A stretch of 64,000 bases of DNA. It comes from Dudresnaya verticillata (lineage: Eukaryota). Position 1 is the first letter of the stretch. Every line of letters starts with the position of its first letter. The stretch covers positions 124,001 through 188,000 of the forward strand of contig OZ374565.1 in assembly GCA_977862235.1 (NCBI GenBank), written 5' to 3'. Shown piece after piece: positions 1 to 52,235 of this stretch. Under the pieces are notes generated by a model that had not been told where the DNA came from, searched no databases, and was given only the letters and a program-made list of their open reading frames with translations. The position numbers were made by a program, and so were the translations under genes.

Positions 1-1710
1 CTATGTATGGCTTCCGCGTCTGGAGTCATGATGTTAAACAAGCTTACTTGCAGAGCTCAGAACAAATTTTGAGAAAGGTCTATTTGAAGCCCTCAAAGGA
101 GTTCGAGCTAGCACTCAACCAGTTGTTAGAGCTTCTCAAACCATTGTATGGTCTACCAGATTCTGGAGATTACTGGAACCAGACCATGCTACTGCATCTT
201 ACAAAGGACCTGTACATGCAGCGGACTGTCAGTGATGTTTCCTTGTTCTTCAGGTACATCGACGGAAAACTCGCAGGAATGACGGGTTCCTATGTAGATG
301 ATTCGTTACACTGTGGTAACGAAAAGTTTCTGAAACTTTCCGACAAGTCTTTAGAAAAGTTCGAATCAAGAGAAAGAGAGTTCGATGATGTTGTGTTCGC
401 AGGAGTGGCCGTCAAGAACTCTCCAAATGGATTTCAGCTTGGACAAGAAGACTACATAAGGAAGCTTTCTATCCTCCCGTTAGATTGTAGTTACTCTGAT
501 TTCAGGTCCAGTCGTGCTAAATTAGCATGGGTTACTCACACTAGACCTGACATATGTTTTATGGTGAACAAATTAGCACAACAGCAGCAAAGTTCGACAT
601 CGGACAAATTAAGAAATTGAACAAGGTCGTTAAGAAGATTCAGAAGGATCCGAAGAGATGCCTACAGTATCAAAAGTTGGACTTCCGCACGTTACATCTC
701 AAGGTGTACGCTGACTCGTCATTTGCTAATAACGAAGATCAGACCTCTCAGCTAGGCTACATCGTCCTACTAGCAGATGATTCGGGCAAATGCAGCATAA
801 CTCACTACTCCAGCCACAAGAGCAGACGCGTCGTTCGGTCTGTACTTGGCGGGGAAGTATATGCCTTCGCTGATGCTTTTGATTTCTCTTTCACCCTGAA
901 GCACGACCCTGAGCGCATTCTGAAGAAGAGAATCCCACTCAAGATCTTCACGGATTCTCGTAGCTTGTTTGACGTAATCACGAAAGCGTCTTCCACTACT
1001 GAGAAAAGGCTAATGATAGACATCAGAGCCGTTCGGAATGCTTATGATGCAAAAGAGATATCTGATGTTGGTTTCATTCGTTCTCAGCATAACCCGGCTG
1101 ATTCGTTTACCAAAGAAGGAGCAAATGATGCGCTCCATGACATTGTTTCAAAGGGAAAATACGACCATCCTATCGAACAATGGGTTGTTCGAGACTGGAA
1201 TACTTCACTAAAAATGTCTTAGTCTGCAAAAGTGACCAAGAAGGATTAAGCGAAAGAGACGGGACTTTGGAAAGACTGAAGCAGACTGACTGCTGAGGGT
1301 GCCAGATTGGCGCTTAGATGCGACACAGTTTTATCTACGTCGCAATAAATCTACTTAGTCTTTATTTACTTTTGCTACAGTAAAATATTTTCTAGTGGAT
1401 AGGTCGTACATTTAGAGACTAGAGCTAGTCTTTATGTGAAGATAGAGTTAGTCTTTTATTTAGTAGACTAACGCTGCAAAACTAGCTCTAAAAGTACGGT
1501 TTTACCTGCCGGAGTCTTGGCTAGCAAGCGCTCCGGCAGAGTATAAAGGGCCTCCCTCGCCGGCCAACTCGGCGAGGAAAGGACACACATTATCAACTCA
1601 AACCACCACCCCCAAGCCACTACTTGACATTTCCATATTTACCGTCAACCGCTGTACGCATCGTGTGTATTTTTCCCGTTTTTGCTTACAGCCGCGCCGG
1701 TTCTGCCACA
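1..1710 (+). mobile_element. 3' part of an upstream Ty1/copia LTR retrotransposon copy (RT-RNase H end, PPT region, LTR), truncated by the window start
   Basis: 1-1710 is near-identical to 6921-8627. Encodes copia RT motifs (HDVKQAYLQ, LLKPLYGL, SYVDD) and RNase H (ADSSF, TDSRS, NPADSFTK) in two frames (3..620, 554..1222). Confidence 0.92.
1277..1710 (+). repeat. Copia LTR (434 bp), shared between the tandem copies
   Basis: TGAAGCAGA...TCTGCCACA imperfect inverted termini (TG...CA). Identity to the second copy ends at CA 1710/8627. Preceded by a purine-rich tract; TATAAA at 1542-1547. The start is inferred from the terminal inverted repeat. Confidence 0.85.
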
Positions 1711-1739
1711 TTGATCAATTACGCTCTACCGCCGCCGTT

Positions 1740-2468: not shown

Positions 2469-2558
2469 ATTCTTTTGATAAAATTTGTTGCTTTCAAAAG
2501 AATTGTCTCAACTTAACAAAAGTTTCGAAATATCGTACACGTCCAAACCCGACCTGTA

Positions 2559-4244
2559 ATGGCGGACTCTGAGGATACCACCCTGCCACCTCAAGGGCTA
2601 CCCACCCACGGTAACCAAGGTGCTCCCGTCAGCTCCGCGAACGAGTTGGAGGAAACCGACTCAGAGGCATCTTCCTTGCATACTACCGTACCGTTTGCAG
2701 AAAATACCCGCCTTCACACCGTTGCACAGAAGACGTTTGTGGATGTCATCCGCACGCATCAGGAGTGCAATGTGACTGGTTCAGACTTCCTTGACATGTT
2801 TTGGGAAGACTATCCACCTTCTTTACTATTCGATGTTGCTATTGCATGTAATTTTGCTTTGATGAGAAGACTTGCCCTATTCTTACCAAGTAAGGTTGGT
2901 GTACCGTATGCTCCACATGAGTCGGGAGATGTTCTCAACCGGCTAGCTGTATCAATCTATGAAGGTCCCTATCTTGCTTCAGCGTACCGTCATATCAGGA
3001 GCATGGTTTTGTCTCTCGGCAGTATCAACAGATCTGATTCGAGTATCGGTTCATCATCTCGCGACTCTGTTCCCAGAAGTCATGGCAGTAAATCTGAACG
3101 CCCGGAACGACACCTAGCGCTAAAAACTGAGGATGGTAACGAAGACTCGGATCAGCCATCTGGTGCTACTATAGGTGCTCGGTCACCGGCTCACAACATG
3201 GCCGTTCGCTTCAAGGATGATTCCAAGAAGTTCTCTGGTGCTTTAGGAGAATGCTGGAAGGAATACTTGGAGGACTATGTTGATGCCGCTACTGACTACG
3301 AGTTGACCGAAAAACAGAAGCTGCAGTATCTTCCCAATATCCTTAAGGCTAGTGCTAAAAGGTACTTTAACCGCAAAGTTAAGCACTCAGCTCACTCCTT
3401 CACAGCTGCAGATGATATGATGGAAGCGTATTTCAACTCCATCTCTCGACAGCATCGTATCGAGAATCATCCCAATATGCTCCGCATCGAGAAGTTCGTT
3501 TCAGGGACAGTTAACCTCAGTGATGCATTGCAGAAAGTCGATGAGCAGATCTCAACGCTCGCTCCACAAGGCCCAATGCACTGTCATGCTGAAGCTAACA
3601 TGGTCGTCTACCTTCGTCGAGCAGTCATTGGACACTCGTGGGCTAAGGAACCAATCAGCCGTGCTTCAGCTGAAAGGCTGACTTACCAAGAGTTCTTCTC
3701 TCGACTCGAATCGGCTATTCAGCAGAACAGAGAGGAGAAATCCCATAGGGCTCAGATGAATCCCCGCAGCCGTTTTATCGGAGCTCCGCAGCCTGATTTT
3801 CCTAACACTCTACTTGCTAGATACGGAAGAGACAAGACCGTGGCTTTTGCCAGAGGTAATAGTAAGCCGGTCTCTGCCCAATCAAGCAATATCGTGTGTT
3901 TCAATTGCGGAAAGAACCACATGATTAGAGATTGTAAGGAAGTCATGGACGCAGCAGCAATTGCCGCACGAAAAGTTCAGTTTTATCAGAGGAAGAAGTT
4001 CGGAAATAATCAGAACAAAGCTTTGAAGCGAGTTTTGTTTGAAGTTTGCGAACAACTGAAACCTGAGCCTGAGATTGAGGATGCCCACACATTCTTCAAC
4101 GTCAGTGAAGAAGTAGAAGAGGAGATTCAAATCCGAGGTTCGGGAGATGAAAGAGAGTCGGAAGACGAAGAAGAAGAAGAAGACTCTATCGAACAGTTCT
4201 ATCAGTCCATTGAGGGTTCCATTCCCAATGGGTTGGATTTTTAG
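2559..4244 (+). CDS. gag: Retrotransposon Gag (561 aa) with zinc knuckle
   Basis: Long ORF between LTR and protease. Capsid-like KFSG...W..YL..Y segment, CFNCGKNHMIRDC knuckle, acidic tail ending GLDF*. Confidence 0.88.
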   Translation: MADSEDTTLPPQGLPTHGNQGAPVSSANELEETDSEASSLHTTVPFAENTRLHTVAQKTFVDVIRTHQECNVTGSDFLDMFWEDYPPSLLFDVAIACNFALMRRLALFLPSKVGVPYAPHESGDVLNRLAVSIYEGPYLASAYRHIRSMVLSLGSINRSDSSIGSSSRDSVPRSHGSKSERPERHLALKTEDGNEDSDQPSGATIGARSPAHNMAVRFKDDSKKFSGALGECWKEYLEDYVDAATDYELTEKQKLQYLPNILKASAKRYFNRKVKHSAHSFTAADDMMEAYFNSISRQHRIENHPNMLRIEKFVSGTVNLSDALQKVDEQISTLAPQGPMHCHAEANMVVYLRRAVIGHSWAKEPISRASAERLTYQEFFSRLESAIQQNREEKSHRAQMNPRSRFIGAPQPDFPNTLLARYGRDKTVAFARGNSKPVSAQSSNIVCFNCGKNHMIRDCKEVMDAAAIAARKVQFYQRKKFGNNQNKALKRVLFEVCEQLKPEPEIEDAHTFFNVSEEVEEEIQIRGSGDERESEDEEEEEDSIEQFYQSIEGSIPNGLDF

Positions 4245-4315
4245 AACGGAGTACTCGCCAATGTCACCCTGAATTGCCAGAGTCAGAGCAAATTGACACG
4301 AGCTCGAACGCTCCG
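4235..4315 (+). promoter_or_regulatory. Putative -1 ribosomal frameshift signal (G_GAT_TTT slippery heptamer plus downstream stem-loop)
   Basis: Heptamer 4235-4241 directly precedes the gag TAG. The -1 frame is open 4235-4450. Nested pairings CGGAG/CTCCG, CTCG/CGAG, TGTCA/TGACA, CTGA/TCAG start 5 nt downstream. Confidence 0.7.
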
Positions 4316-4425
4316 CCTAATTTACTATCTGGCATGAAAAATCCGATTCTGTTTAGTGCGTTAAAAAAGGGGAAAAGCCAAAAAATAGAAAACAGAAAAA
4401 TCCAAGAAGTAGAAATAGACCCTAC

Positions 4426-7400
4426 ATGCATATTCTCAACACCGGTATAGAAGACATTAAGTTGGACAGTAGCTCAAATGACTTCCACGGGGCTTGCATA
4501 GACACTGGAGCTCAACGCAGTGTAATTGGAAAGCAACAGGCAAAAGCATATTGCAAGAAGGTTGGAGTCCAATTCAAGCATAAAGCTTCTCCGCTAAGGT
4601 ACCGTCTTGGAAAGGGAACATTTTCTGCAATAGGTTCAATCCCAGTTAGAATTTGTACGCCTGATGGAAAAGTTCTGAGGTTGAACGTTGACGTTATTGA
4701 TGTGAAATTCCATTCTTACTTGGTCTAGATTTTCTAGATAGAGAGAAAATATTCGCGGACAACGTTGACAATCAGCTGGTCTGCAAACTAGGATGGCATA
4801 TGCCAATCGTTCGCAAGTTCGGTCATCTTTATGTCGATTGGACGGACTACGCCGTCAACTTTACCAAAGCAGAGCTGAAGAAACTCCATCTACACTTCTA
4901 TCATCCTACTGTACAGAAGCTTTACGCTCTGCTCAAAAGAGCTAAACCTGAAGAGGTTGACCACGACACGAAGAAGCTTCTAAACAAAATTACTACAGCA
5001 TGAAGTGCAACACCCAAACACGGGGATTGCCCCAACCGTGTTCGACGCGGTCTCCCGCGGTTAGGTAGCAGGCGCCACGCGGTGAGGCGGGCGCCTGTGT
5101 GCTGGTAGAGCAGCCGAGACACGGGGTGTGCCCCGGGGATAGTGTAACCGGGGTCGACTGTAAACCCCCGATCCACCTGAAGTGCCGTAGTGCACGTAAA
5201 CGTAGCGACGGCGATACACGCCGGTAGGATGGCGCGGAAGAGGGACTCAGAACAGGGTACGTAGCCCGAGTTGCGTCCGGTGGTGACACCGGAAGCAAAG
5301 TCGGGGGTATCCTCAGGTTCCGAGACCAACTTGGCGCTTTACTGTGAGAGGGGCTCACCCCGTATACTAAGTATCCCCCGCGGGAGGTGCGCGCGCGTGT
5401 CTGGCGCCGTGCGCCTGACACTTGGCATGTGCGCGCACCGCGGGCTCACTAAAATATCGCGCAAAAATATCTAGCGTAGAAATACTACTAGCGCACTGTA
5501 AATCAGTGTAAACTAAGGGTGCGCGTTGCTGGCGTGCACCCGATCGAGGACTCCCTCGGATATGTTCGGCGCGCGTGTCGCGCGTGTAAACGTGGATGAG
5601 TGCGCATACCAGTGCGCGTGTATGTGAGCGGGCGTCCGCGCAAAAACAGGTTCCGGGCACTGCACCACACAGCATGCCAAACTTGTCAAAGATTCACTCC
5701 ACGACAACAGAGTTTCAAGGTTTCATTTCCAAAGGGAATCGTATTTAACCAAGAGCTCGCATTGGATTTAATGTTTCTTGACGGAATGGCAGTACTACAT
5801 GTCGTGGACTTGCAAACGCATTTTAGTGCAGCAACATTTTTGGCTGGTCAATCGATACAGGCTACTTGGTATGCATTCTTGGAATGCTGGGCTACCGTAT
5901 ACACTGGTTTCCCAGACTCTATTAAGACAGACCAAGGAAGCATATTTACTTCACCAAAGTGGAAAGAAATTATGGACGCCTACGGTATTGCGTTTACACT
6001 TACCGCCGTAGAAAGCCATAATTCCTTAGGTGCTGGTGAAAGGTATCACGCACCATTGAGAAGGATTTATCACAAAATCCGACATTCTCAGCCGAATATT
6101 GATGTCATGATGGCTCTTAGATTAGCTGTCAAGGCGATGAATGATACTATGAACCCTGAGGGGCTCGTTCCTTCCCTCCTCGTCTTCGGTGTTCTACCAA
6201 GGTTTCCTGGAGCATCTCAGTCCTTACCTGATCAGCAAGAAAGAATGCAGGCACTCTTGCTTGCTAGACTTGAGATGGAAATTATTTCTAACCAACTCCG
6301 TTTACGGAAGGCATTAGAATCGAGGCTTCCGCAAGCTGCTTCCCATGAGCTGGAAGTTGGACAGGAAGTTCTAGTGTATCGAGAAGATGAGAAACCGATC
6401 AAATGGACTGGCCCGTTCAAGATCAAGAGATTAGAAGGGAAGCAAGTGTTCATAGATCGAGATGGTACTGAGGCTCAACACTCAGTAGCCCAAGTCAAGC
6501 CGTTCCTTCAAGAGGAGGAAGTCGGTGAAAACTTTGTGGACGTACTACACTCAATGGTAAGGCCTTTCGTTTCCTGCAAAGGCAGGGAACAAGAACCAGC
6601 TAGAGTGTATGTCACTGAAGTTCTACATCCAAGAGACCCTAGAGGAGGCTCTCCAGAGTTCTTGGAAGCTAAGAAGAAAGAGATTAAAGGTCTCATTGAG
6701 AAGGGTACTTGGAAATTAGTACTGAGAGAAGACGTCCCCAATAACGCAAACATATTGAATGGTAGATTTGTTTTGGCTATCAAGAATGCCAATACTAACG
6801 AAGAGATTTTCAAAGCAAGATATGTGGTCCAAGGACATAAGGATAAGGAGAAGAACTTCTTGATCCACAATTCTACCAACGTGAGACAGAGTTCTACACG
6901 ACTGATGATGGCAATAGCTTCTATGTATGGCTTCCGCGTCTGGAGTCATGATGTTAAACAAGCTTACTTGCAGAGCTCAGAACAAATTTTGAGAAAGGTC
7001 TATTTGAAGCCCTCAAAGGAGTTCGAGCTAGCACTCAACCAGTTGTTAGAGCTTCTCAAACCATTGTATGGTCTACCAGATTCTGGAGATTACTGGAACC
7101 AGACCATGCTACTGCATCTTACAAAGGACCTGTACATGCAGCGGACTGTCAGTGATGTTTCCTTGTTCTTCAGGTACATCGACGGAAAACTCGCAGGAAT
7201 GACGGGTTCCTATGATGATTCGTTACACTGTGGTAACGAAAAGTTTCTGAAACTTTCCGACAAGTCTTTAGAAAAGTTCGAATCAAGAGAAAGAGAGTTC
7301 GATGATGTTGTGTTCGCAGGAGTGGCCGTCAAGAACTCTCCAAATGGATTTCAGCTTGGACAAGAAGACTACATAAGGAAGCTTTCTATCCTCCCGTTAG

Positions 7401-8139
7401 ATTGTAGTTACTCTGATTTCAGGTCCAGTCGTGCTAAATTAGCATGGGTTACTCACACTAGACCTGACATATGTTTTATGGTGAACAAATTAGCACAACA
7501 GCAGCAAAGTTCGACATCGGACAAATTAAGAAATTGAACAAGGTCGTTAAGAAGATTCAGAAGGATCCGAAGAGATGCCTACAGTATCAAAAGTTGGACT
7601 TCCGCACGTTACATCTCAAGGTGTACGCTGACTCGTCATTTGCTAATAACGAAGATCAGACCTCTCAGCTAGGCTACATCGTCCTACTAGCAGATGATTC
7701 GGGCAAATGCAGCATAACTCACTACTCCAGCCACAAGAGCAGACGCGTCGTTCGGTCTGTACTTGGCGGGGAAGTATATGCCTTCGCTGATGCTTTTGAT
7801 TTCTCTTTCACCCTGAAGCACGACCCTGAGCGCATTCTGAAGAAGAGAATCCCACTCAAGATCTTCACGGATTCTCGTAGCTTGTTTGACGTAATCACGA
7901 AAGCGTCTTCCACTACTGAGAAAAGGCTAATGATAGACATCAGAGCCGTTCGGAATGCTTATGATGCAAAAGAGATATCTGATGTTGGTTTCATTCGTTC
8001 TCAGCATAACCCGGCTGATTCGTTTACCAAAGAAGGAGCAAATGATGCGCTCCATGACATTGTTTCAAAGGGAAAATACGACCATCCTATCGAACAATGG
8101 GTTGTTCGAGACTGGAATACTTCACTAAAAATGTCTTAG
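4426..8139 (+). pseudogene. pol: Copia pol (protease-integrase-RT-RNase H), broken by frameshifts, a solo-LTR insertion and a YVDD->YDD deletion
   Basis: Protease CIDTGAQRS; integrase HLHFYH...CQTC split by the insertion; DLMF, TDQGS and GAGERYH core; RT and RNase H motifs. Frameshifts near ~4430, ~4705 and ~7495. Confidence 0.9.
5001..5669. mobile_element. Solo LTR (669 bp, GC-rich) inserted in the integrase zinc finger
   Basis: TGAAGTGCA...TGCACCACA termini and 5-bp duplication CAGCA (4996-5000, 5670-5674). Removing it restores ...KITTA-CQTCQRF. Confidence 0.88.
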
Positions 8140-8193
8140 TCTGCAAAAGTGACCAAGAAGGATTAAGCGAAAGAGACGGGACTTTGGAAAGAC

Positions 8194-8627
8194 TGAAGCA
8201 GACTGACTGCTGAGGGTGCCAGATTGGCGCTTAGATGCGACACAGTTTTATCTACGTCGCAATAAATCTACTTAGTCTTTATTTACTTTTGCTACAGTAA
8301 AATATTTTCTAGTGGATAGGTCGTACATTTAGAGACTAGAGCTAGTCTTTATGTGAAGATAGAGTTAGTCTTTTATTTAGTAGACTAACGCTGCAAAACT
8401 AGCTCTAAAAGTACGGTTTTACCTGCCGGAGTCTTGGCTAGCAAGCGCTCCGGCAGAGTATAAAGGGCCTCCCTCGCCGGCCAACTCGGCGAGGAAAGGA
8501 CACACATTATCAACTCAAACCACCACCCCAAAGCCACTACTTGACATTTCCATATTTACCGTCAACCGCTGTACACATCGTGTGTATTTTTCCCGTTTTT
8601 GCTTACAGCCGCGCCGGTTCTGCCACA
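8194..8627 (+). repeat. Copia 3' LTR (434 bp)
   Basis: Copy of 1277-1710 with two substitutions noticed by eye; ends TGCCACA, then unrelated flank. Confidence 0.88.
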
Positions 8628-11170: not shown

Positions 11171-11546
11171 GTTTTAGAATGGTTCTGAGAGGGTTCTGAC
11201 CCAGTTGATATTGCCGTTCTCTTGTTAACATACCTTCTCTCTTGGTAGTAGCGTACACTATAAGCTCTTAGTAATCCCCTATAAAGTTCCCCATCCCTCC
11301 TATGTAAACATGCGAATTGCAAGGCTGGGTTTTGGCGATGCAGTTCGAAACTGCCAAACAGGACATGAAAAGCCACGACGGAAAGCATGCTGTGTGTCTG
11401 AGAAGTTCCACTGGACGCTCTCTCTGTTACAATCTCGCTTCTAGGAACTGTTCAAGTTTCTGGAAAGAATCTGGAAGGATTGGTGCATTAGGTTGCCAGC
11501 GTCTGCAGGAGAGCTTTGAGTACATGAGTTGGCAAACGAGTCCGCG

Positions 11547-13622
11547 ATGAGATCGGCAAAACAAGAGATAGCCGCCAAAAGGTTGCCACATATCCAAGGC
11601 ATAAGAGCACTATGCCTCGTCTACGTGTTGCTCTTTCACTTTGAAATCGGGGGTGCGCAATTGGGCTTTCTTGGTGTGGACATGTTCTTCGTCATTTCTG
11701 GATATGTCATGACGAACGCAATTTGCAAGAAGCTGTTTCGGGATGAGTTTAGTATGAAACAATTCATCGTGAGTAGATACTGGAGGTTATGTCCTACACT
11801 CTTCATGACATGTGCTCTTACTCTGCTCTTCTTCTACCAAATCTTAGAGCCCGTTCAGTTTCTGGAAGTTGAATGGGCAGCGCTCTCCTCAGTTTTGGGT
11901 GTACAGAACATACGTGAAATGGTAAAGCAAGAAGATTATTTTGCAACGCCGTCAAAAGCAAAACCTTTGCTGCACGTTTGGTCCCTTTCATTGGAACAAC
12001 AGTTTTATGGGGTTTATTCGGTCGGACTGGTAGTGCTTCACAGATTTGTGCGCAATACGCGATATCCAAGGGAATGCCTTTCTGCTCTCGTGGTATTGAC
12101 ATCTGCGCTTTTCCTGGTCTTTGGAACCCTTCTCATAGACTACTACCCGAGTTGCAACTTTTACTTCTTATTCCATAGGTTTTATGAATTTGGACTAGGG
12201 TGTACTCTGTTCTTACTCCGCGCGCCAAACTTGGAAGCTGAGAATACATTCCTAGTCGCTCGCTTCCAGAGTCCCAAATTCTTGAAGGAGATTTTCGTTT
12301 GTTCTGCATTGCTAGTTCCAACCATACAGGTTTTCAACTTGTTGCCAAAGCATGAGCTTCTGCAGTTGCGTATTTGGAGTTTATTGTCTGTGTGCATTCT
12401 TATCGATTGTCCCGAAAGTCATATTTCTTCTCTTCTGCTTTCCAACAGGGTTGCCGTGGCAATTGGAGAAGCATCGTACACTGTCTATCTTCTTCATCTT
12501 CCAATATGGGTCTGGCTTTCGTCTATTTTCTCTTGTGCTAGATTTCAGCAACTTCGCCTTTCCTTCGTTTTGTTGAGTCTTATTGCATCTTCCTTGTTCA
12601 TGTTCTGGTGTATCGAAAAGCCTTTTCGGTCGAAGAAAGGCCCTCCTTTTGGTGGATTCTCTGTAGCGTGTGTCCTGCTGTTCATTGCGGTCTTCTGGCA
12701 TGCGTCTTCTCAAAACTCCGGTGGAGAGTTCCATTTCGACTCTAAACGAGTCGGTGATTTGGTTTTCGATTGGCGCACCGGACACGACGAATTGTTTCCC
12801 GTACCCGATACGATTACTCGAAAAGACCGTCTATCGCAACTGGTATACGAGAACGGCGAGTTGGTGACACAGAATCCAAACGCTTTTAACACGAACGCCA
12901 TGGTCATCGGCAACTCATTTGGGCTACACACTGCTGACGGTATGCGCATAGCTTCCGGCAAGTGGGGAAAGAAGATAATCTTTGAGACGATGCTAGGGTG
13001 TTCTTTCGATTTACCAGGCAGAGGGAAGAGCGGTGGCAATTGCGAGGCGTCAAATGAATTCATATATAATGCAGTTATGCTAGTACAGCCCAAAGTGTTA
13101 TTCATAGGTTCAAGATGGGAAGGGTATGTGAAGTCTGACAAACTGGATGCAAAGTCAGAAATGCCGCTACGAATGAAAGAGCATTTTGAGACTCTATCAC
13201 TCAACTTTTCGAGGGTAGTGTCAAAAGTGGTTTTTATTGGGACGACACCGTCGTATGCAGCTTTCCGAAAACACAAGCATTGCCGGCATTTGCAAGGAAC
13301 AATATTCAAGGATTTGGTTTCGAATGTTGAAGCTAAGAAGCGAACGTACGCCTCGCAGCCGCGTTTCTGGAAGACGAACGTCTTAATGAGGAGATACTTT
13401 GAGTCTACTGAAGCACCAAAAAATGCTGAGTTTCTGGATATATTTCAGATTGCTTGTCAGAACACAAAGAACGTTTGCAACTTTGATGTAGCGAGAGATG
13501 TTTCTGTTCCCAGTGAGGTGCAGGGTGAGAAAGACAGACTTGCACTCTGGGATGATGGGGTACACCTTTCGTTATGGGGTTCTTGGGCAGTTGGTATGCA
13601 TTTGCATCGGGTCTTACAATGA
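11547..13622 (+). CDS. Acyltransferase-3 (OafA/OatA/YrhL-like) membrane O-acyltransferase fused to an SGNH domain
   Basis: IQGIRAL..V..FH, GVDMFFVISGY, LLHVWSLSLEQQFY and IGEASYTVYLLHLP motifs, multiple TM segments; C-terminal GNS...DGVH SGNH motifs. First ATG at 11547; intronless. Confidence 0.92.
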   Translation: MRSAKQEIAAKRLPHIQGIRALCLVYVLLFHFEIGGAQLGFLGVDMFFVISGYVMTNAICKKLFRDEFSMKQFIVSRYWRLCPTLFMTCALTLLFFYQILEPVQFLEVEWAALSSVLGVQNIREMVKQEDYFATPSKAKPLLHVWSLSLEQQFYGVYSVGLVVLHRFVRNTRYPRECLSALVVLTSALFLVFGTLLIDYYPSCNFYFLFHRFYEFGLGCTLFLLRAPNLEAENTFLVARFQSPKFLKEIFVCSALLVPTIQVFNLLPKHELLQLRIWSLLSVCILIDCPESHISSLLLSNRVAVAIGEASYTVYLLHLPIWVWLSSIFSCARFQQLRLSFVLLSLIASSLFMFWCIEKPFRSKKGPPFGGFSVACVLLFIAVFWHASSQNSGGEFHFDSKRVGDLVFDWRTGHDELFPVPDTITRKDRLSQLVYENGELVTQNPNAFNTNAMVIGNSFGLHTADGMRIASGKWGKKIIFETMLGCSFDLPGRGKSGGNCEASNEFIYNAVMLVQPKVLFIGSRWEGYVKSDKLDAKSEMPLRMKEHFETLSLNFSRVVSKVVFIGTTPSYAAFRKHKHCRHLQGTIFKDLVSNVEAKKRTYASQPRFWKTNVLMRRYFESTEAPKNAEFLDIFQIACQNTKNVCNFDVARDVSVPSEVQGEKDRLALWDDGVHLSLWGSWAVGMHLHRVLQ

Positions 13623-24514: not shown

Positions 24515-25053
24515 GACGTGATTTCGTGGTGGAGAGGGTGTGTCGGGCGGTGGGAATGCTGCTCGGGGAGCATGCGATGGTCCCAGCGGGAGGGGTTACG
24601 TGCTATAAGGATCCATAGCGTCTTGCGCAAGACTGTGAATGCATCTGCATGCGAGGCCTCAGGGGGTCAGCCAGGGAGGCGGGCGCAGCGCGTAACTCGC
24701 GGACCTCGAACGGAGCGATGCGGGGCTTGTCGTTACCATGGGAACAACGATGGCGGTGAAGGTAGCGAGCGTTGCCCACCGTGCATGGCATGCTGGCCAT
24801 CGTCAGCAGAGCGGAAGACTGCTCTCCGGCCGCCTGCGCGCAGTCGCGAAAATATGTCCGATATGGCGCAGTGAGGTGACGTGGCCGCGCCGCGAAAATG
24901 ACGTGGCCGCAGCCCCAAAAACGAACGAGAGAGCGGATCACCGCGCCACGCCGCGTCACTCCCGCTTTCCGCGTCGACTCCGCCCCGATCGACTCCTCGC
25001 CGACTCCGCACCGACTCCGCACCGCCCGCTCCCGGAGCGCACGTCTACGCGCC

Positions 25054-26493
25054 ATGGCCGGCCCCTCGACCATCGCAATGAGTGACTTGCTGCTCGCGCT
25101 ACGCCTGCATCTGCAAGAGTCCGGCGCAGGAAACGTCCCAACCCGCGCGCTGCTCGACCTTCCACAGCATGCTGCCCCACACCCCATGGATCGCGACGCC
25201 GCCGCCGCCTGCGTGATCACCGACATCGCCCTCTTGGTCGCGCGTGACAGTGCAGTCGCCCACACCGTCGCCGCCCAGGAGGCTGGACATCTCTCGTCGC
25301 CCGTCTCTACGTCGGCCGCGCCCGCCCACCCCACCGATGTCTCGCTGGACACCCAGTCCATCCCGCCACACACCTGCCCCATATGCCTCGAGCTCACCCC
25401 CGCGGCAACCTGCTTCGTGTCCGGCACGTGCGGACATGCGTTTTGCACGCACTGCATGCGCTCGTATCTCACCGTGGTCGCCATGGAAACCAAAAAGTTT
25501 CCCATCCGCTGCCCTTCCTGCCGCGCCAACCTCGACCCTCCCACTTGTCTTTCCTTCCTCTCCGGTGTGGGCGACGCTTACTTTGCCTTGGAGAGGCTCA
25601 TTCTTGAGAAGCAGCATTGTGATAACATTCGCTACTGTGCGAATGAAAAGTGCGCATCCCCGTTTGACTGGTTTGATGATCCGGATTTCGCCGCCTATTC
25701 CGACCGCTACCGCATCCAATGTCCGCTGTGCGACGAGGCAACCTGCGTCCAGTGCAGGGCCCTCTGGCATGACGGTCAGACCTGCGACCAATTTCAGCAG
25801 GAGAAGGAGGATACCGATGCACTTGTTGCCCTAGCAAGGAATAATGAGTGGCGGGCCTGTCCGGACTGTGGCCAGGTTATTGACAAAGTCGTCGGCGATT
25901 GTAACTTCGTCAAGTGTCGATGCGGATGCGGTTTTTGTCACCATTGCGGCAAGAAGTATATCTCGTTGGCTGCAACTGCCGAAAACATACATGGACGTCC
26001 TGATTGCACCTGTGGTTTGTTTCCCGAAGGTCGCCAACAGAATGTGTTCGAAGGCGTGGCCGCTCTCGAGATGCCCGTTTTTCATATGCAGGTGGATCAT
26101 TGGATGGAGGGTCCCGTCCATGTCCAAGCGGAGTACGGGGCACCCATCATCGCCCAAGAGCGGATAGTTCAGGTTCCGCCCAACGACTACATGCGCAACG
26201 AGCTCGACAGTTATGAGATTGGGCCTAACGGCTATGTGTCCGTGCAGGACTGGTTGCAAGGCGCAGGTCTGAGGCGAAAGAAATTGCCGCCGCGTTTGCA
26301 CGGAGAGCTTAGCGGGAACCGATGCCCTTACGACGAGTGCCAAGCGACATTTGCCAATGTCCGCGCACTTAATCAGCACCTTGCAAACGTGCGAAGGCAC
26401 CGTGTTTATCTCTGCTGCGGGCGTCCGTTCACTACATATCATGGTTTAGCAATGCATCAGCGAGCTGTGCATGGTCGTCGCTTTGAGAACTAA
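25054..26493 (+). CDS. RBR (RING1-IBR-RING2) E3 ubiquitin ligase with C-terminal C2H2-like fingers
   Basis: RING1 CPIC...CGHAFCTHC...CPSC; IBR CANEKC...CPLC...CVQC..WH..TC; RING2 CPDC...CNFVKCRCG..FCHHC; tail CPYDEC...H...H. Start MAGPS (25054). Confidence 0.9.
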   Translation: MAGPSTIAMSDLLLALRLHLQESGAGNVPTRALLDLPQHAAPHPMDRDAAAACVITDIALLVARDSAVAHTVAAQEAGHLSSPVSTSAAPAHPTDVSLDTQSIPPHTCPICLELTPAATCFVSGTCGHAFCTHCMRSYLTVVAMETKKFPIRCPSCRANLDPPTCLSFLSGVGDAYFALERLILEKQHCDNIRYCANEKCASPFDWFDDPDFAAYSDRYRIQCPLCDEATCVQCRALWHDGQTCDQFQQEKEDTDALVALARNNEWRACPDCGQVIDKVVGDCNFVKCRCGCGFCHHCGKKYISLAATAENIHGRPDCTCGLFPEGRQQNVFEGVAALEMPVFHMQVDHWMEGPVHVQAEYGAPIIAQERIVQVPPNDYMRNELDSYEIGPNGYVSVQDWLQGAGLRRKKLPPRLHGELSGNRCPYDECQATFANVRALNQHLANVRRHRVYLCCGRPFTTYHGLAMHQRAVHGRRFEN

Positions 26494-26963: not shown

Positions 26964-28853
26964 TTAGATCGGAGTAGGCGTCGATGCCTTCGCAAGAACG
27001 ACCGGGACTTCCCGCATGGCGAACTTGCGTACCATATCGTAGAAGTCTTTCTCGTCGCCAGTCTTAGACATTCTCACCACATTGCTCAGCTCGTCCATGT
27101 ACAGGATCACACAGTCATCATGTACTTTAAACAAGATCGACAAGCTGAACAACATCGCATACAACGGCATGTCCATCGCCAAGTTGATCGACTTGATCTC
27201 GGTTTCGAACTGAGCCTTCAGGCAAACAGTTTCGGTCGCATCGCCTTCATCAGGTGTAGGCGACATGTCGCCAAGGTCACCAATGTTCAAAATCCTGACA
27301 CCCTTCTTGTTCAGCGCACGAATCCTGGTCGCTATCCTCTTAGCATCGGGCTCAGGCTCCGGGGAAGGTACCCGAGGTCTGGACGACGGTGCAGGGATAA
27401 AGACGGGCGGTCTAGTGACGACCTGTGGGCGCGCAGACGCGGCCGAGCCTTTCGGGGCTGCCATAGTCGAGGTTGCTGGGGCTGCCGTGGTGGGGGCTTC
27501 TGCGGCTGTCGCAGTTGAGCTTTTTTCGGCAGCCGCGGTGGAGCTTTTTGCGGCTGCCGCGGTCGAGCTTTTTGCGGCTGCCGCGGTCGAGCTTTTTGCG
27601 GCTGCCGCAGTCAAGGTTTTCTCGGCTGCGGCGGTCGGGGTTTTCACGGTTGGGGCAGGAGTGGGAGCTGAAGTAGGCTCCGCTGTGGCCGTCAGGGCTG
27701 TCGTGGGGGCTGGACCCGGAGCTCCTCTGTTGGTGGGCGCGGGCATTGGTGTGGGAATTTGGGTAGGGGTGGATGGCGGGGCGGGTGCTGGAGGGACTTT
27801 CGCCTGATCCGCAGAGGGCGCCACTTGCTTCAAAGTCTGTGGGACCGCTGGTGGTGACAGCGAGACAGCTGTGTCGCCCCTCGTGAGATCTGCGTCATCA
27901 CGCGTATTCTCCTTCCCAGATGCGGGTCCTATCGACCCTACGCCACTGCTCTTGAGAGAGTCGCTTCCATCATCTGCAGAATCATCATCTTCGACGTAGC
28001 TGGCGGGATCCTTTTTCGCAGCATTGCGCTTGGGCCTTAAGGGGCGGGACGGCATGGAACGTCCCGGGTGAGCAGCGGGAGTGGCAGTGAGGGCGAGTTT
28101 GCCCCGCTTGTAGCGAACACCGCAGGCATTACACAGATTGCGGCTGCCGTCTGGACCTTGGCGCCACCTGGGGGTCTTGATGGTGCTGCAATTCATGCAC
28201 TGCAGCCTCGCTGACAAGCGGCCGCGCTTCTTTGCCGGACGAGGAATGTGCTTTCCTACGGAAGATATCATCTGCGGTGATTGGACGTCATCGTCAGGCG
28301 AAGATGGAACTGGGTGGTTGCGGCGAGCAACCGACGACGCGTGCATCTTCGCGGTTTGCTCGTCTGGCGAAGCGGGCTCCACTTCACCGTCCAGCGGGGG
28401 CGTAAAATCCCTGGACGAAGCATCGTCCCTGTTTGCTTGCGGTGGCGACGGGGTCTCCACGCGGAGACGGTCCTTCCTTCGTGCTGCGGCCGGCGCGGCC
28501 GAAGCCGTGGGCTTTCCACGAGACGACGCGAGCGTACCACGCTTGTAGCGGGTACCGCATGCATTGCACAGGGTCTTCGGGCCCGTGGGGCCGTTGCGCC
28601 ACATCGGGGTTTCCGAGACGTCGCAGTTGGCGCAGCGCTTCGGCAGCGCCATGACGGACAGAATTTCCGGCGGGAGCGTGACGCCATCGTGCGGCGACGA
28701 CGGCATGCGAATGACGCGAGGGCGTGGCTTTGGAGTGCTGAAGCGGGCGGCACAGCGGGCGCAAAGGGCGTCGGCCGCGACAGAGGGGCTGGACGAGCCG
28801 CACACGGAGCACCGCGCGCGCGAGCGCGTGCTCGGATCGGAGAGCCCCGCCAT
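26964..28853 (-). CDS. GATA transcription factor with two C-x2-C-x18-C-x2-C fingers
   Basis: CANCDVSETPMWRNGPTGPKTLCNACG and CMNCSTIKTPRWRQGPDGSRNLCNACG. Start MAGLSD (28853). Confidence 0.9.
   Translation of the reverse strand: MAGLSDPSTRSRARCSVCGSSSPSVAADALCARCAARFSTPKPRPRVIRMPSSPHDGVTLPPEILSVMALPKRCANCDVSETPMWRNGPTGPKTLCNACGTRYKRGTLASSRGKPTASAAPAAARRKDRLRVETPSPPQANRDDASSRDFTPPLDGEVEPASPDEQTAKMHASSVARRNHPVPSSPDDDVQSPQMISSVGKHIPRPAKKRGRLSARLQCMNCSTIKTPRWRQGPDGSRNLCNACGVRYKRGKLALTATPAAHPGRSMPSRPLRPKRNAAKKDPASYVEDDDSADDGSDSLKSSGVGSIGPASGKENTRDDADLTRGDTAVSLSPPAVPQTLKQVAPSADQAKVPPAPAPPSTPTQIPTPMPAPTNRGAPGPAPTTALTATAEPTSAPTPAPTVKTPTAAAEKTLTAAAAKSSTAAAAKSSTAAAAKSSTAAAEKSSTATAAEAPTTAAPATSTMAAPKGSAASARPQVVTRPPVFIPAPSSRPRVPSPEPEPDAKRIATRIRALNKKGVRILNIGDLGDMSPTPDEGDATETVCLKAQFETEIKSINLAMDMPLYAMLFSLSILFKVHDDCVILYMDELSNVVRMSKTGDEKDFYDMVRKFAMREVPVVLAKASTPTPI
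27515..27640 (-). repeat. 24-bp coding tandem repeat (TAAAAKSS)n in the GATA gene
   Basis: About five copies of GAGCTTTTTGCGGCTGCCGCGGTC-like units. Confidence 0.85.
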
Positions 28854-29185
28854 GCGGTGGGCGGGGTGCGGCGACAGCGCGAGGGGCTTGCGGTTGTCTT
28901 CCTCGAGAGACGGGGGGCGGAGGGTTCTACGGTGGCTCGCGTCGCCTTGGGCGGCGCGGTCGGGTCGGGCGGGACGGCGGGCGGAACTTGACGGTAGACG
29001 AACGGCGGGTAAATGCAAGCCACAGGCGGCTTTTTTCTCGAAATTTAGGTTTCCGCCCTCCGCGAAGTGAAAATATGCGCGCCCTTTCGAATTGGCGCGC
29101 TGCGCTTCAAGCGCCTTCCGACCGCAACGTCTCCTCCGTTGTCAGCAGACTCTTTAAGTCTTTTTACTGAAAACGAGCAAGCAGT

Positions 29186-31270
29186 CTACACCGGCATCAG
29201 AGTAACATACACATTGTCCGGCTCAACTACAACATTAACTATTCCAACCAGCGTCTGGGCACATCCAGTCTCCATTCCCGGCGAGATTGCAATCGACAGT
29301 CTGCTATCTGTCACCTCCCGCTGCGTCACAGAGTCTCGCAGCACAACAGTCACTGCCGCCGGCTCCCGCGACCTCATCTCATGCCATCCGGCCTTCAACG
29401 TGATCACGGCCTCGTCCGTCCACAGGCCCTGATTCAGAGCATCCCCGACCTTGACTACTGTCGTCTCCACCCCTCCACTTTCTCCTAAAAACATGACCAC
29501 GTTGCCTGAGCCCACACATCCTTCCCCTCCACTCTCACTTGCAAACTCGGTGGCAGTGTTCAGGTCATGCATTCCACCCTTCCACGCGTAGTGAACCACT
29601 AGTTCCATGCCTTCGACGCTCCCCACTACAGCAACAAAGTCCTGCAGCCTCTCATCCATAGTAGTTGAAGCTGGTTGAACTTCAATAGCTTTCTCCAACG
29701 TAACTGCGTATTGTGAGTCCTTCATTTCTCTTCCAGAGATCACCGGAACTGCCGAAAACCCTAAAATCGCGAAATCGGAGTCCTCTCGGAAGGGTATGAG
29801 GTTACTGAACACATAATCACCTTCCTGTTCATCGCGCGTTAAAGCCTTTCCATCATCTCTCAACTCAAACGACGTTTCTTCTCCCCCAAGTGCCTCCATA
29901 GCGCCGGACTGATACACCACAAACTTCTCTATCTCATCTCTTGCGCTCATCTCCAGTTCTGATGCGTTAACAGTTACGAATACGTTAGATGAAACCCCCG
30001 TTGTGACAATCCTAGGCTCCAACTTAAAGATTACAGGCCCAATTGTAGGCAACGAAGTATAGCTAGGAAGAGGTTTCCAACTGGGTTTCGAACTAGAGCT
30101 CGGCTTGGGCGTGTGTGACGGTTCGTATTGGTAAGATGGTTTTGCACTCTCACTAGGTCGAGGTTCATAGCTCGGCTTCACGCTTCTGCTCGGATCAGCG
30201 CTGTGGCTTGGCTTGGCGCTCATGCTAGGACGAGTGTCTTCCGTAGGCTTTGGACTCCTCGACGGCTCACCCTGGAAAGACGGTCGTGGGCTCATACTGG
30301 GGCGAGTATCCTCGCTCGGTTTAGGGCTCCTCGACGGTTCACCCTGGAAAGACGGTCGTGGGCTCATGCTGGGGCGAGAATCTTCGCTAGGCTTAGGGCT
30401 CCTCGACGGCTCACCCTGGAAAGACGGTCGTGGGCTCATGCTGGGGCGAGAATCTTCGCTAGGCTTAGGGCTCCTCGACGGCTCACCCTGGAAAGACGGT
30501 CGTGGGCTCATGCTGGGGCGAGTATCCTCGCTAGGCTTAGGGTTTCTCGATGGCTCACCCTGGAAAGACGGTCGTGGGCTCATACTGGGGCGAGTATCGT
30601 CGCTAGGCTTAGGGCTTCTCGACGGCTCACCCTGGAAAGACGGTCGTGGGCTCATACTGGGGCGAGTATCGTCGCTAGGCTTAGGGCTCCTCGACGGTTC
30701 ACCCTGGAAAGACGGTCGTGGGGTCATGCTGGGGCGAGAATCGTCGCTAGGCTTAGGGCTTCTCGACGGCTCACCCTGGAAAGACGGTCGTGGGCTCATA
30801 CTGGGGCGGGAATCCTCTGTGGGCTTCGGACTCCGGCTAGGCTGACTGCTAGGTCTTGGCGTCATCGTAGGTGAAGCAGTCGGCCGAGATGTGCGACTGG
30901 CACTTGGTTTGGGACTCCGACTCGGTTGAGTGCTAGGCCTTGGCGTCATGGTGGATGAAGCGCTCGGCCGGGGTGAGCGGCTCGCAATAGGCTTTCCGCT
31001 TCGAGATGGGCTGGGCGATGGTTTGGGTGAAACGCTCACGTTGTTTCGTGTGCAGATCCATCCACGAGTGGGCCGCCCCCACCGGTTTACTCCTTGGCAT
31101 GATTGCACCTCGCAGTACCCGAAGTTGTACCATCTCTGGCAGGTTTTTTCGACGAAATTCCTACGGCGAAGGCATGTTTCGCCGCAGTTAGGAAGTATCT
31201 GTGCCTGTACTTGAGCGAGAACGACACAGATGAAGATGATGATGGTGCCTGTGAGATTCCACCGCTCCAT
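29186..31270 (-). CDS. Secreted Ser/Pro-rich repeat protein (694 aa) with Cys-rich N-terminus and conserved C-terminal domain, paralog A
   Basis: Signal peptide, N-terminal Cys motif, 24-aa repeats. C-terminal ~280 aa (LRDDG...D...GDYVFS) are homologous to 33500-34579. Confidence 0.85.
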   Translation of the reverse strand: MERWNLTGTIIIFICVVLAQVQAQILPNCGETCLRRRNFVEKTCQRWYNFGYCEVQSCQGVNRWGRPTRGWICTRNNVSVSPKPSPSPSRSGKPIASRSPRPSASSTMTPRPSTQPSRSPKPSASRTSRPTASPTMTPRPSSQPSRSPKPTEDSRPSMSPRPSFQGEPSRSPKPSDDSRPSMTPRPSFQGEPSRSPKPSDDTRPSMSPRPSFQGEPSRSPKPSDDTRPSMSPRPSFQGEPSRNPKPSEDTRPSMSPRPSFQGEPSRSPKPSEDSRPSMSPRPSFQGEPSRSPKPSEDSRPSMSPRPSFQGEPSRSPKPSEDTRPSMSPRPSFQGEPSRSPKPTEDTRPSMSAKPSHSADPSRSVKPSYEPRPSESAKPSYQYEPSHTPKPSSSSKPSWKPLPSYTSLPTIGPVIFKLEPRIVTTGVSSNVFVTVNASELEMSARDEIEKFVVYQSGAMEALGGEETSFELRDDGKALTRDEQEGDYVFSNLIPFREDSDFAILGFSAVPVISGREMKDSQYAVTLEKAIEVQPASTTMDERLQDFVAVVGSVEGMELVVHYAWKGGMHDLNTATEFASESGGEGCVGSGNVVMFLGESGGVETTVVKVGDALNQGLWTDEAVITLKAGWHEMRSREPAAVTVVLRDSVTQREVTDSRLSIAISPGMETGCAQTLVGIVNVVVEPDNVYVTLMPV
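30255..30830 (-). repeat. 72-bp coding minisatellite (~8 copies, PSMSPRPSFQGEPSRSPKPSEDSR)
   Basis: GACGGTCGTG recurs at 30279, 30351, 30423, 30495, 30567, 30639, 30711 and 30783. Confidence 0.95.
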
Positions 31271-42966: not shown

Positions 42967-43717
42967 GGATGCGGCGGGGCGCGAGGCTTGTTGTGTTTTG
43001 GTTTCTCGATAGGGGTGTTGTAACGCGGGATAAGAGGTGATAGAATGGTAGCATCTCTTTCGGGGGCGTTAGAGGCAGAGTGCATTTGGGGGCGGTGCGT
43101 TTGTTGCGTGGATGTGTTTGCGGTGGGGTTTTGGCAGTGTTCCAAATTCTGAAAGCGTTGTTGTCGCCGTTGTAAATAAGCAGCAACATCGCCTCAAGCG
43201 AGCACTGCACCGAACTTTGAGAGCGTTCTTGACCAAGTTGCTTCAGATACGACCTCCACGACGCGGACTGAGAAACAGGCAGCGCAGCGGTTGCACTGGA
43301 GAGAAGGCTGTCCCGCAGAGGATGCGCCGCGGCGCAAGAAGGAGCGGCGCAGCGCGAGCTACGGGTCGGAACGCGCGCTCCGCGCTCCACTGCAGCGGCA
43401 GATCGGCGCGAAGCGGGGCGGGCGCCGCGGCGGGACACATGGGGCAGCCGCGGACGCGCACGCGCAATGCCTATCTCCCGCGCGTGTGGGCAAGCGCGTG
43501 CGTGGCGTCACGCGCTGCCACTTGCGCAGGCGCGGCGACGCGCGTGCATGGCCCCGTCATCAGCGCGCAGCTCGACAAACGCGGCAGTAGCCAGTCGTCG
43601 CCCCTGTCCCGACCGTCGCGCTGCGTCCGCGCCCCAATGGGCCGCGCGCAAAGTAACTTGTTGTACTCTGTCCGCAAGCGCGCATGCACAACCCCATCAC
43701 GCTATGCCATGCCTCCT

Positions 43718-43758
<41 letters not shown>

Positions 43759-43841
43759 CATACCGCCGCGCCCCGCACATAACACCGCGAGTGTCGCGCC
43801 GTCGCTCCGCACAACGCATCCTCCCTACCCTCCGCCCCCCA

Positions 43842-44900
43842 ATGCAGCCCCACCAGAACAACCCAAACGGCTTCTACCCGCCCACCTCGTCGCACTACTA
43901 CTCGTCAGACGCTAGTGCCGTGTCGTCCAAGGACGCCCCCTCCGCACCACCTCCGGATACCACCAAAGCCACCTTTCCCGTGCCGAGCCCCATGCATCCG
44001 CAGATGCAACAGCCTATGCAGCAGCCTATGCAACAGCCTATGCAGCAGCCTATGCAACAGCCTATGCAGCAGCCTATGCAGCAGCCTATGCAGCAGCCTA
44101 TGCAACAGCCTATGCAACAGCCCATGCCCATGCAGCAGCCCATGCCCATGCAACAGCCCATGCCCATGCAACAGCCCATGCCCATGCAACAGCCCATGCC
44201 CATGCAACAGCCCATGCCCATGCAACAGCCCATGCAACAGTCTATGCATCAACCCATGCAGCAGCCGATGATGGCGCAACAGCAACTACCCACCATGCAA
44301 CAGCAGTACCCGGGAATGATGCAGCAGCCAGGTATGACGCAACCTGCCATGGGCTACATGACGCAGCCGGTGGCACAGCCGCAGATGAACATGATGCAGC
44401 AGCCGAACGCTTCCTTCACCTCCATGTCTGCCGGCTCCGGCATGCAGTCCGGCCACATCGACGCTATCAAGGCGCATTACCCTGCCGTCGGCTCTTTCAA
44501 GGATATGACCAGCAACATTGCGGGGCTGCACGAGGAGACGATTTTCATGGTTGAGGACGCCATCAGGCGTGTCGTCAATCTCAAGACAAAGATAAACGAA
44601 TTGCAGGCCAAGCGCTCAAGCTACTGGGCCAGACAGGCCGCCAATGGTGGCGTCGCCGTTGCTAGTGCCGTATTTACGTTTGGTACGTCGCTCCTGGTGC
44701 AGGGACCCGGCGCCGTGCATCAGAAGAACAAGTTGGACGCTTTGAAGAGAGAGATTCGGGCGATGCTCGGTCAGCTCAACCAGCTGCGTGATAGCTTTGG
44801 CCACGATTCCAGGTTTAAGGGTGCAGACAATAGTGTGCGCATTGTAGATAGCGTCTTCAAACATGGCATTTCCAGGACCGAGTTGAAGGGTGAATATTGA
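43842..44900 (+). CDS. Gln/Pro/Met-rich low-complexity protein with conserved C-terminal coiled-coil/hydrophobic domain, copy A
   Basis: ATG 43842 (MQPHQNN), (QQPM)n and (QQPMPM)n repeats. C-terminal ~160 aa are nearly identical to 52236-52712. Confidence 0.8.
   Translation: MQPHQNNPNGFYPPTSSHYYSSDASAVSSKDAPSAPPPDTTKATFPVPSPMHPQMQQPMQQPMQQPMQQPMQQPMQQPMQQPMQQPMQQPMQQPMPMQQPMPMQQPMPMQQPMPMQQPMPMQQPMPMQQPMQQSMHQPMQQPMMAQQQLPTMQQQYPGMMQQPGMTQPAMGYMTQPVAQPQMNMMQQPNASFTSMSAGSGMQSGHIDAIKAHYPAVGSFKDMTSNIAGLHEETIFMVEDAIRRVVNLKTKINELQAKRSSYWARQAANGGVAVASAVFTFGTSLLVQGPGAVHQKNKLDALKREIRAMLGQLNQLRDSFGHDSRFKGADNSVRIVDSVFKHGISRTELKGEY
44003..44265 (+). repeat. 12-bp and 18-bp coding repeats (QQPM / QQPMPM)
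   Basis: Arrays of ATGCA(A/G)CAGCCT and ATGCAACAGCCCATGCCC. Confidence 0.9.
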
Positions 44901-51467: not shown

Positions 51468-51874
51468 GATGGTGTCAACTCCGTTTCGGTTTGGAGCCCT
51501 GTGAGGCGATCGGTGGGTGATCGTAGCTCACTTTCGTGAACCTTGTAGGTGACCAGGTTTGATCCGTTACGGATCGTGCACTCCTTAGTCGTAGTGATCA
51601 CTGTGATGGCTGGAGGGGACTCCGAGCCAGGTGACTTGCGGTAACCTACAGGGTGAAGGCAAAAGCTTCGGCTGCGATGCCGGGAGTTTAGTGAGAGTGA
51701 TATCCGAGACGGTATAAGTACTACAGAACCGTGGAGGGAGAGCGACGGCGGCGAGTCCATGACACATGGCCACGTTGCCACGGGGCGGACGCCGTATCGG
51801 AGTCCTCAAAGAGGTGCAACGCCGTTCCGGTGAAATAGCCAAGCGCACAGCTGGCTACACCAAGGAGCCAATTT

Positions 51875-51925: not shown

Positions 51926-52235
51926 AATTGGAAGGCCCATCCTTTACATGCAGAAGGTACGCTACGGACTCGCATGGCTACAGCGGGGGACAATTGTGCT
52001 ATGGCTCATTGCAATTGTTTCTGACTACGAGCAGTGCAGTCGGCTTCGGCCGGCCTGGAAAGATGCACAGCATTGCGCCCAAACTTGGACATGCTCGCAA
52101 AAGCTCTGGTAAACATTGCTCACGCACAAGCGCCTCACGCAGCAGGCCTTTATTGAACAGAGCAAAGACGGCAGCAGCCAAGCAAGAAGGGTACAGCGTG
52201 AACATAGCGTAAAGAAGAAACCTCAATAGAGGAGG

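Follow-up and report, generated by a model that had tools for sequence, protein, structure and literature searches.

A covarying palindrome at the primer-binding-site position of copia and gypsy retrotransposons from Dudresnaya verticillata and of related elements

Introduction

A perfect palindrome stands at the primer-binding-site (PBS) position of certain LTR retrotransposons; its letters are free and its symmetry is kept in two superfamilies, copia and gypsy. Two such elements lie in a stretch of 64,000 nucleotides from Dudresnaya verticillata (NCBI GenBank assembly GCA_977862235.1, contig OZ374565.1, positions 124,001 to 188,000 of the forward strand), hereafter the window. As a first-pass annotation of the window had observed, neither element has a TGG-type PBS, and in each a perfect 10-bp palindrome begins on the last A of the LTR, at 1710–1719 in the copia element and at 51593–51602 in the gypsy element. 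The self-complementary site is conserved and covaries in both superfamilies, being present in all nine relatives with readable upstream DNA, which bears out the enrichment and covariation expected by that annotation. We consider it an evenly balanced proposition that the palindrome replaces the tRNA PBS, with two packaged genomic RNAs pairing there and one of them, after a cut, serving at the LTR edge as primer for its partner.

The closest known case was absent from the established priming modes listed in the first-pass annotation. According to excerpts of Donnart et al. (2017, PMC5445492), fungal GalEa elements have no PBS; a sequence termed CHSeq1 (CTGATCAGT) follows the 5′ LTR and is palindromic with the final A of the LTR, and a downstream near-complement, CHSeq2, is its inverse complement with an A/A mismatch. 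In the same excerpts, this Conserved Hairpin Site (CHS) is termed a singular feature of fungal GalEa that no known priming model fits, and metazoan GalEa elements are described with a tRNA-Met PBS. In Tf1-type cis priming, the start of the transcript pairs with the PBS through a complement of about 11 nt, and a novel priming was proposed for Cryptococcus Tcn2–5 (available parts of PMC7175516).

Materials and methods

The site set comprised 15 sites, namely 11 non-fungal sites (two in the window and nine in relatives) and 4 fungal-type sites; 14 of them are 10-mers. For the two window elements and locus L035, comparison with a second LTR copy set the LTR end; the remaining sites were recognised ahead of gag by a CA joined to a palindrome. 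The contig survey covered 25 contigs; 13 of other or unassigned clades without a placed junction were left out, and L074, L075 and L043 lay outside the survey. Three loci were not counted: L033 (no LTR–leader junction found), L071 (no junction and no upstream DNA) and L103 (no upstream DNA). Among the metagenome gypsy loci, 3 of 29 reach upstream of gag, and 26 are without such DNA.

Results and discussion

Elements in the window

The copia LTR (445 bp) was located at 1266–1710 on the plus strand, and its 3′ copy, with 2 mismatches, at 8183–8627. The LTR end was fixed at 1710 by the second copy, which has the same end at 8627, beyond which the DNA is unrelated and has no palindrome; the putative start at 1266 was placed from the purine tract and from relatives. 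After position 1710 the sequence reads TTGATCAAT, with no TGG start, and the palindrome ATTGATCAAT, of the CHSeq1 type, occupies the PBS position at 1710–1719 on the plus strand, its first base being the last A of the LTR. Positions 1–1710 repeat 6921–8627 with 99.7% identity over 1710 bp. Two tandem copia units have the LTR at 1266–1710 in common, which serves as the 5′ LTR of the described element (the second unit) and as the 3′ LTR of the upstream copy. The units differ by 3 bases in the reverse transcriptase (RT) and 2 in the LTR. The second unit is also short of one codon at the RT motif, which reads YVDD in the upstream copy and SYDD in the second. A putative promoter, TATAAA, was noted at 1542–1547 on the plus strand.

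The internal region of the copia element, all on the plus strand, begins with an extra element-borne gene at 1740–2468, in which domain matches indicated two C2H2 zinc fingers (zf-met and zf-C2H2_jaz) and a predicted GT–AG intron at 1762–1917 joins in frame. This gene is followed by a gag reading frame (2517–4244, stop to stop) with a CCHC-like knuckle and by pol (4245–8139) with protease (DTGA), integrase, RT and RNase H, GalEa-type motifs, frameshifts and one insertion. The insertion, a GC-rich segment of ~674 bp at 5003–5676 in the integrase region with the 8-bp direct repeat ACAGCATG on both sides, has no clear terminal inverted repeats and was taken as a mobile element. A zinc-finger gene between palindrome and gag was also present in L032 (about 677–868, 58% over the fingers) and was not seen in L034 or L077. 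One of the fingers in the window element matches the dsRNA-binding zf-C2H2_jaz family, and the protein could, judged from its domains, have a duplex-RNA-binding or anti-silencing role. A GTAAGT splice-donor motif lies 43 nt (position 1762), 19 nt and 6 nt past the palindrome in the three closest copia elements (window, L032 and L034, respectively) and is absent from the other 12 sites.

The pol motifs of the copia element (DTGA, KARYVV, DVKQAY, YVDD, TRPDI and ADSFTK) agree with the GalEa motifs given in the available text and supplement MOESM5 of PMC5445492 (protease DTG(A/C); RT KARLVA, DVKAAY and YVDD; RNase H TRPDI and ADxxTK), two of them only as near matches. On these pol motifs, the element is classified as GalEa-like. 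Two other GalEa features are not shared: the GalEa LTR has the form 5′-TGT...CA-3′, and the copia LTR ends in CA with a putative start of TTT in both copies; the single large GalEa reading frame is also not present, gag stopping at 4244 and pol being separate and degenerate. Among named organisms, pol has its best relatives in Chondrus crispus (42%) and Porphyra umbilicalis (35%), with filamentous ascomycetes next. In a tree built from 43 RT rows (one dropped as too short), whose references exclude metazoan GalEa and CoDi, the element groups with the Chondrus and Porphyra proteins (support 100/96), and a larger 33-row group that adds the CHS-bearing fungal elements has a support of only 82/86.

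The gypsy element lies on the minus strand. Its 5′ LTR (51602–51859, TG...CA) and 3′ LTR (46203–46460) have 258 bp each and 1 mismatch, and a 5-bp target-site duplication, CTTGG, stands at 46198–46202 and 51860–51864. The 5′ LTR end is fixed because the 3′ LTR ends at 46203. The minus strand from 51602 to 51593 reads A followed by GTGATCACT, with no TGG start, and the perfect 10-bp palindrome AGTGATCACT thereby starts on the last A of the LTR at the PBS position. The gag-pol region (46471–51467) contains RT, RNase H and integrase and a 200-N assembly gap at 48201–48400, and a polypurine tract was found at 46461–46475. An RVT_1-type RT, the order RT–RNase H–integrase, the LTRs, the polypurine tract and the target-site duplication place the element in Ty3/gypsy. 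Its named relatives are in Gracilaria changii (56%) and in the oomycetes Aphanomyces and Achlya. In a quick tree of 41 rows (one dropped), among which there are no named gypsy clade references, all five palindrome-bearing gypsies fall in one group with the Gracilaria and oomycete proteins (SH-aLRT 100) and the tRNA-primed gypsies fall outside it; some proteins of the group carry chromodomains. The named relatives of both elements point to a red-algal host.

The copia and gypsy palindromes stand in the same register, and in both cases this rests on an LTR end set by a second LTR copy, in agreement with the first-pass annotation of two unrelated elements. The (T)ACG that had been reported after both palindromes is likewise present in both. 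The window contains 81 palindromes of at least 10 bp. Both strands together contain 8809 CA dinucleotides; in 9 cases the A belongs to a palindrome that continues past the dinucleotide, and these LTR ends account for 2 of the 9. No tRNA genes and no Rfam matches were found in the window, and no other primer site was visible in its two elements.

Several further features of the window were recorded. The gypsy insertion is flanked by an inverted segmental duplication (43627–45233 and 51926–54601, about 80% over 1.6 kb) that contains proline/glutamine/methionine-rich repeats, and a second inverted pair lies at 60132–61003 and 62536–63791. Host genes encode an acyltransferase-3/SGNH protein (11520–13622), an IBR/RING ligase (24880–26493) and a GATA zinc-finger protein (26964–29141), and a 72-bp tandem array lies inside a long reading frame at 30074–30937.

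Palindromes in relatives and controls

Where the upstream DNA could be read, a CA-anchored palindrome was found in 4 of 4 gypsy relatives and in 5 of 5 non-fungal GalEa-like relatives; counting 10-mers only, the figure is 8 of 9, the 12-mer definition having been added after the 12-mer of L095 was seen. The non-coding interval of each of the nine holds a single palindrome of this kind, compared with such a site in 14–72 per 1000 dinucleotide shuffles. The gypsy relatives L003, L008 and L013 (30–56% identity) all read A followed by GTGATCACT. In the gypsy locus L081, from a bacterial bin with eukaryotic repeat contigs, A is followed by AAGCGCTTT about 55 nt ahead of the likely gag start. Among the copia relatives, the final A is followed by TTCCGGAAT in L032, the closest (67% in pol), by TTCGCGAAT in L034 and L094, by ATCCGGATT in L077 and by GTTATATAACT, forming the 12-mer, in L095. 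The fungal-type loci L001, L002 and L035 all read CA followed by CTGATCAGT. A second fungal-type junction in L035 (1501–1512) agrees with the window copia in all ten letters, with its CHSeq2-like partner changed to match; it is weak evidence because a RIP-like C-to-T change is possible there. The feature is not peculiar to the host of the window, in which the first-pass annotation had placed it; it occurs in gypsy relatives, in GalEa-like relatives and in fungal GalEa.

Seven elements that come from the same bins but belong to other clades served as controls. The sequences at their PBS positions were TGGTCTCCCGACCTAG in four, TGGTAGCA-type in one and GGTTATGGGCCCAG in two, which we take to be tRNA and half-tRNA sites. 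A CA-palindrome was absent from the intervals of six of the seven, and a single one lies ~900 nt from the PBS in the seventh. Two CA-palindromes were set aside as chance occurrences: one at position 346 of L101, in a bacterial-looking flank about 990 nt upstream of the tRNA-type site of this locus, and one at position 12 of L091, about 900 nt upstream of a TGG site.

Scans of viral contigs gave no matches with the gypsy alignments or the narrow copia alignment, and the broad copia alignment returned 2 fungal-type loci. A family-wide search of 257 genomes gave no further junction. Six loci (L008, L081, L094, L095, L001 and L002) assemble as single-LTR, circularly permuted units, which are collapsed repeats, tandem arrays or one-LTR circles. 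The bacterial bins G001, G002, G003, G109 and G216 hold eukaryotic LTR-retrotransposon contigs, a sign of contamination; G001 has 15 gypsy-type and 26 copia-profile matches.

Covariation within the palindrome

In the 14 aligned 10-mer sites, all 70 of 70 cells pair, 19 of them through change on both sides. Four of the five pairs change on both sides (pair 2–9: TA, GC, CG and AT; pair 3–8: TA and AT; pair 4–7: GC and CG; pair 5–6: AT, CG and GC), and only the LTR-derived A–T outer pair is invariant. The covariation score was reached by 0 of 500 shuffles. Perfect pairing is partly built in because most sites were located by being palindromic, and the interval shuffles given above (14–72 per 1000) are therefore the fair test. 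Eight distinct palindromes occur among the 15 sites, five of them in the single bin G001 (L032, L077, L094, L081 and L095).

The inner pairs all vary in a compensated manner, so that the TGATCA common to the two window elements is not the invariant. The cores differ among sites, being GATC, CCGG (in the closest copia relative), CGCG, GCGC or TATA. A shared host primer or a sequence-specific nuclease, which the first-pass annotation had offered for TGATCA(-ACG), is therefore unlikely; ACG occurs within 5 nt after the palindrome at 6 of the 11 non-fungal sites, or 4 of 9 without the window elements, and its offset varies. The other half of that proposal, a tRNA-independent role of a self-complementary site, is partly supported, in that neither window element shows a TGG start and the self-complementarity is conserved and covaries.

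Priming model and alternatives

The following mechanism is proposed. Two packaged genomic RNAs would form a 10-bp intermolecular duplex through the palindrome; the duplex itself is predicted by folding, and a dimer within the particle is presumed. In this duplex, position 10 of one RNA would stand opposite the last A of the LTR in the other. Cleavage just 3′ of the palindrome, behind position 9 or 10 and possibly by the RNase H of the RT as in Tf1, would leave a 3′-OH placed to copy the U5-R of the partner, which is the normal primer geometry, and minus-strand synthesis may begin there. Through copying of the primer, plus-strand synthesis would regenerate the site as its own reverse complement, which would account for the fixed A1–T10 pair and would turn a single mutation into a compensated pair within one cycle. 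For second-strand transfer, this copy of the primer and the site as copied into the minus strand would have to match. Such a match would be true only for a palindrome, and the scheme would account for the fixed register, the A–T outer pair, the free sequence and the compensatory change.

Folding provided evidence on the pairing of two RNAs. With 100 nt of upstream context, the minimum-energy homodimer fold contained the full palindrome duplex in 9 of the 11 non-fungal sites; L081 keeps 7 of the 10 pairs and the window gypsy 0. Any perfect palindrome tends toward such a duplex in silico. Complementarity is higher between a flank and its own partner than with shuffled flanks (over 11 sites, combined z −5.1) or swapped ones (p 5e-5), a signal that comes mainly from copia sites, some of them related, with the window gypsy flanks at null level. 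This result is not specific to mutual priming because U5–leader stems are common in retroelements. In the window copia, imperfect inverted-repeat arms at 1691–1738 on the plus strand (about 1691–1706 and 1723–1738) are predicted to form a stem whose 16-nt loop presents the palindrome (z = −1.8, for a single element).

Such a loop is also the placement of a retroviral dimer-initiation site (DIS), and the palindrome may be only a dimer-initiation or packaging signal of the DIS or Ty1 PAL type, with the primer elsewhere and not visible in the sequence. By prediction, the palindrome lies in a 16–17-nt hairpin loop in L032, L034 and the window copia, and not in the window gypsy; free letters under strict palindromy fit this explanation, and palindromic dimer signals are described for HIV-1 and proposed for Ty1 in the available parts of PMC3592414. 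We judge it unlikely all the same. No alternative primer site is visible, known DIS come in addition to a PBS (excerpts of PMC5445492), and the palindrome always starts on the last base of the LTR, a fixed start that, on our reasoning, is required of a primer but not of a signal for dimerisation alone.

Priming by folding back, in which the palindrome forms an intramolecular hairpin with a downstream near-complement as between CHSeq1 and CHSeq2 of fungal GalEa, appears quite unlikely. The fungal-type sites speak for it, since all 4 are predicted to fold into a hairpin with downstream sequence instead of the homodimer, and CHSeq2 is conserved in most fungal families, with a blank entry for 5 of 44 (PMC5445492, in excerpt). 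Outside the fungal-type sites, a CHSeq2-like partner above shuffle level was found at 0 of 11 sites, in a test of low power, given that even the known-type CHSeq2 of L002 did not rise above null. None could be seen in the window copia. In the window gypsy, a CHSeq2-like 9-mer stands 25 nt downstream with 6 of 9 positions pairing, but this 9-mer was not seen in L003, L008 or L013. A hairpin, moreover, offers no reason for CHSeq1 to be palindromic.

Self-priming of the Tf1 type was rejected, the complement of ~11 nt between LTR and PBS not having been found. The match with the element's own transcript, which the first-pass annotation had put forward as a check, yielded no complementarity above null: the longest anchored Watson–Crick run was 3–6 nt in all 15 sites, the null level, four of these sites having only 63–108 nt of upstream DNA. 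In both window elements, for which complete LTRs were searched, the longest anchored run was 5 nt, or 6 nt with G–U pairs.

The symmetry of the site could also have arisen at the DNA level, as a copying by-product (snap-back or template switch at the LTR edge) or as the binding site of a dimeric protein, without a role in RNA dimers. Perfect symmetry at all inner pairs is what copying would be expected to give, and the symmetry is longer by one C–G pair in 5 of the 14 sites. The outward course of the symmetry is nevertheless RNA-like. At 9 of the 11 non-fungal sites, it stops at the A–T pair, the first position outside being unpaired (in 8 of these the first two both are), and beyond the outer pair it often resumes as an imperfect stem containing G–U pairs. 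The varying inner letters argue against a sequence-specific protein, and an origin at the DNA level is very unlikely in our view. Priming by an RNA of the host, such as a tRNA half or an snRNA, with incidental palindromes, is highly improbable: internal-tRNA priming does exist (available parts of PMC3592414; FunCo1 in excerpts of PMC5445492) and ACG does follow 6 of the 11 non-fungal sites, but the eight palindromes would need equally many self-complementary RNA ends, conservation among the gypsy relatives stops about 9 nt past the LTR, and a single primer end cannot pair with both window sites, which have T and G, respectively, beside the LTR.

Relation to known systems

Four described systems come closest to the proposed mutual priming of two genomic RNAs at the palindrome. 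Fungal GalEa elements, in the excerpts of PMC5445492, appear to belong to the same copia lineage and have no PBS, as the window elements show no TGG-type one; alike in both are the nine nucleotides after the LTR that are palindromic with its final A in the same register, and the letters of their CHS, CTGATCAGT, are nearly the same as TTGATCAAT in the window copia and GTGATCACT in the window gypsy. They differ in an almost fixed sequence accompanied by CHSeq2, whereas here the inner pairs covary, one site has 12 bp, and the site extends to GalEa of red-algal type and to a gypsy clade. The copia half of the finding accordingly has close prior art in fungal CHSeq1, as judged from sequence. Tf1/sushi elements (Schizosaccharomyces pombe Tf1; PMC7175516, in part) resemble the elements studied here in tRNA independence, a primer from their own RNA and a primer end at the LTR edge, a role that is presumed here; in Tf1, however, the first 11 nt pair with a non-palindromic PBS in cis, and in the model proposed here the site itself would act in trans.

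The retroviral DIS and Ty1 PAL sequences (available parts of PMC3592414 and PMC5445492) are self-complementary and able to pair two genomic RNAs, and the hairpin-top position is predicted in several elements here. They coexist with a tRNA PBS, and the Ty1 PALs have 6 nt and lie off the LTR edge, whereas here 10–12 nt would take the place of the PBS. The biv-TRIM elements of bivalves (PMC6934838, in excerpt) have no canonical PBS and carry inverted repeats and palindromes in the inner domain, which their authors likened to the CHS; they are non-autonomous, and no fixed LTR-anchored palindrome is described in that excerpt. In the literature covered, which included few subscription papers and the available parts of PMC2806351, PMC3587641 and PMC3350952, no report was found of an LTR-edge palindrome in red algae or in gypsy elements. 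On the sequence comparisons, what appears new is the site outside fungi, its presence in a gypsy clade, the full covariation and the finding of no conserved CHSeq2 outside fungi.

Conclusions

The priming of PBS-less GalEa elements has been an open question since 2017. Covariation reduces the possible answers to self-complementarity, not sequence, at the LTR edge, and this self-complementarity is kept in a second superfamily, gypsy, as well as in copia. Whether mutual priming amounts to a third route to reverse transcription of LTR elements, beside tRNA priming and Tf1 cis self-priming, is a proposition to which we lend slightly less than even credence; the route would extend over copia and gypsy lineages in red algae, fungi and probably oomycetes, and would have had several origins or moved between superfamilies. 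If priming in trans is true, dimerisation and priming would be one step. No host tRNA would be needed, control of the PBS by tRNA fragments would not reach these elements, and jumps between hosts would be easier. Annotation that demands a tRNA PBS would then miss whole clades of LTR retrotransposons.
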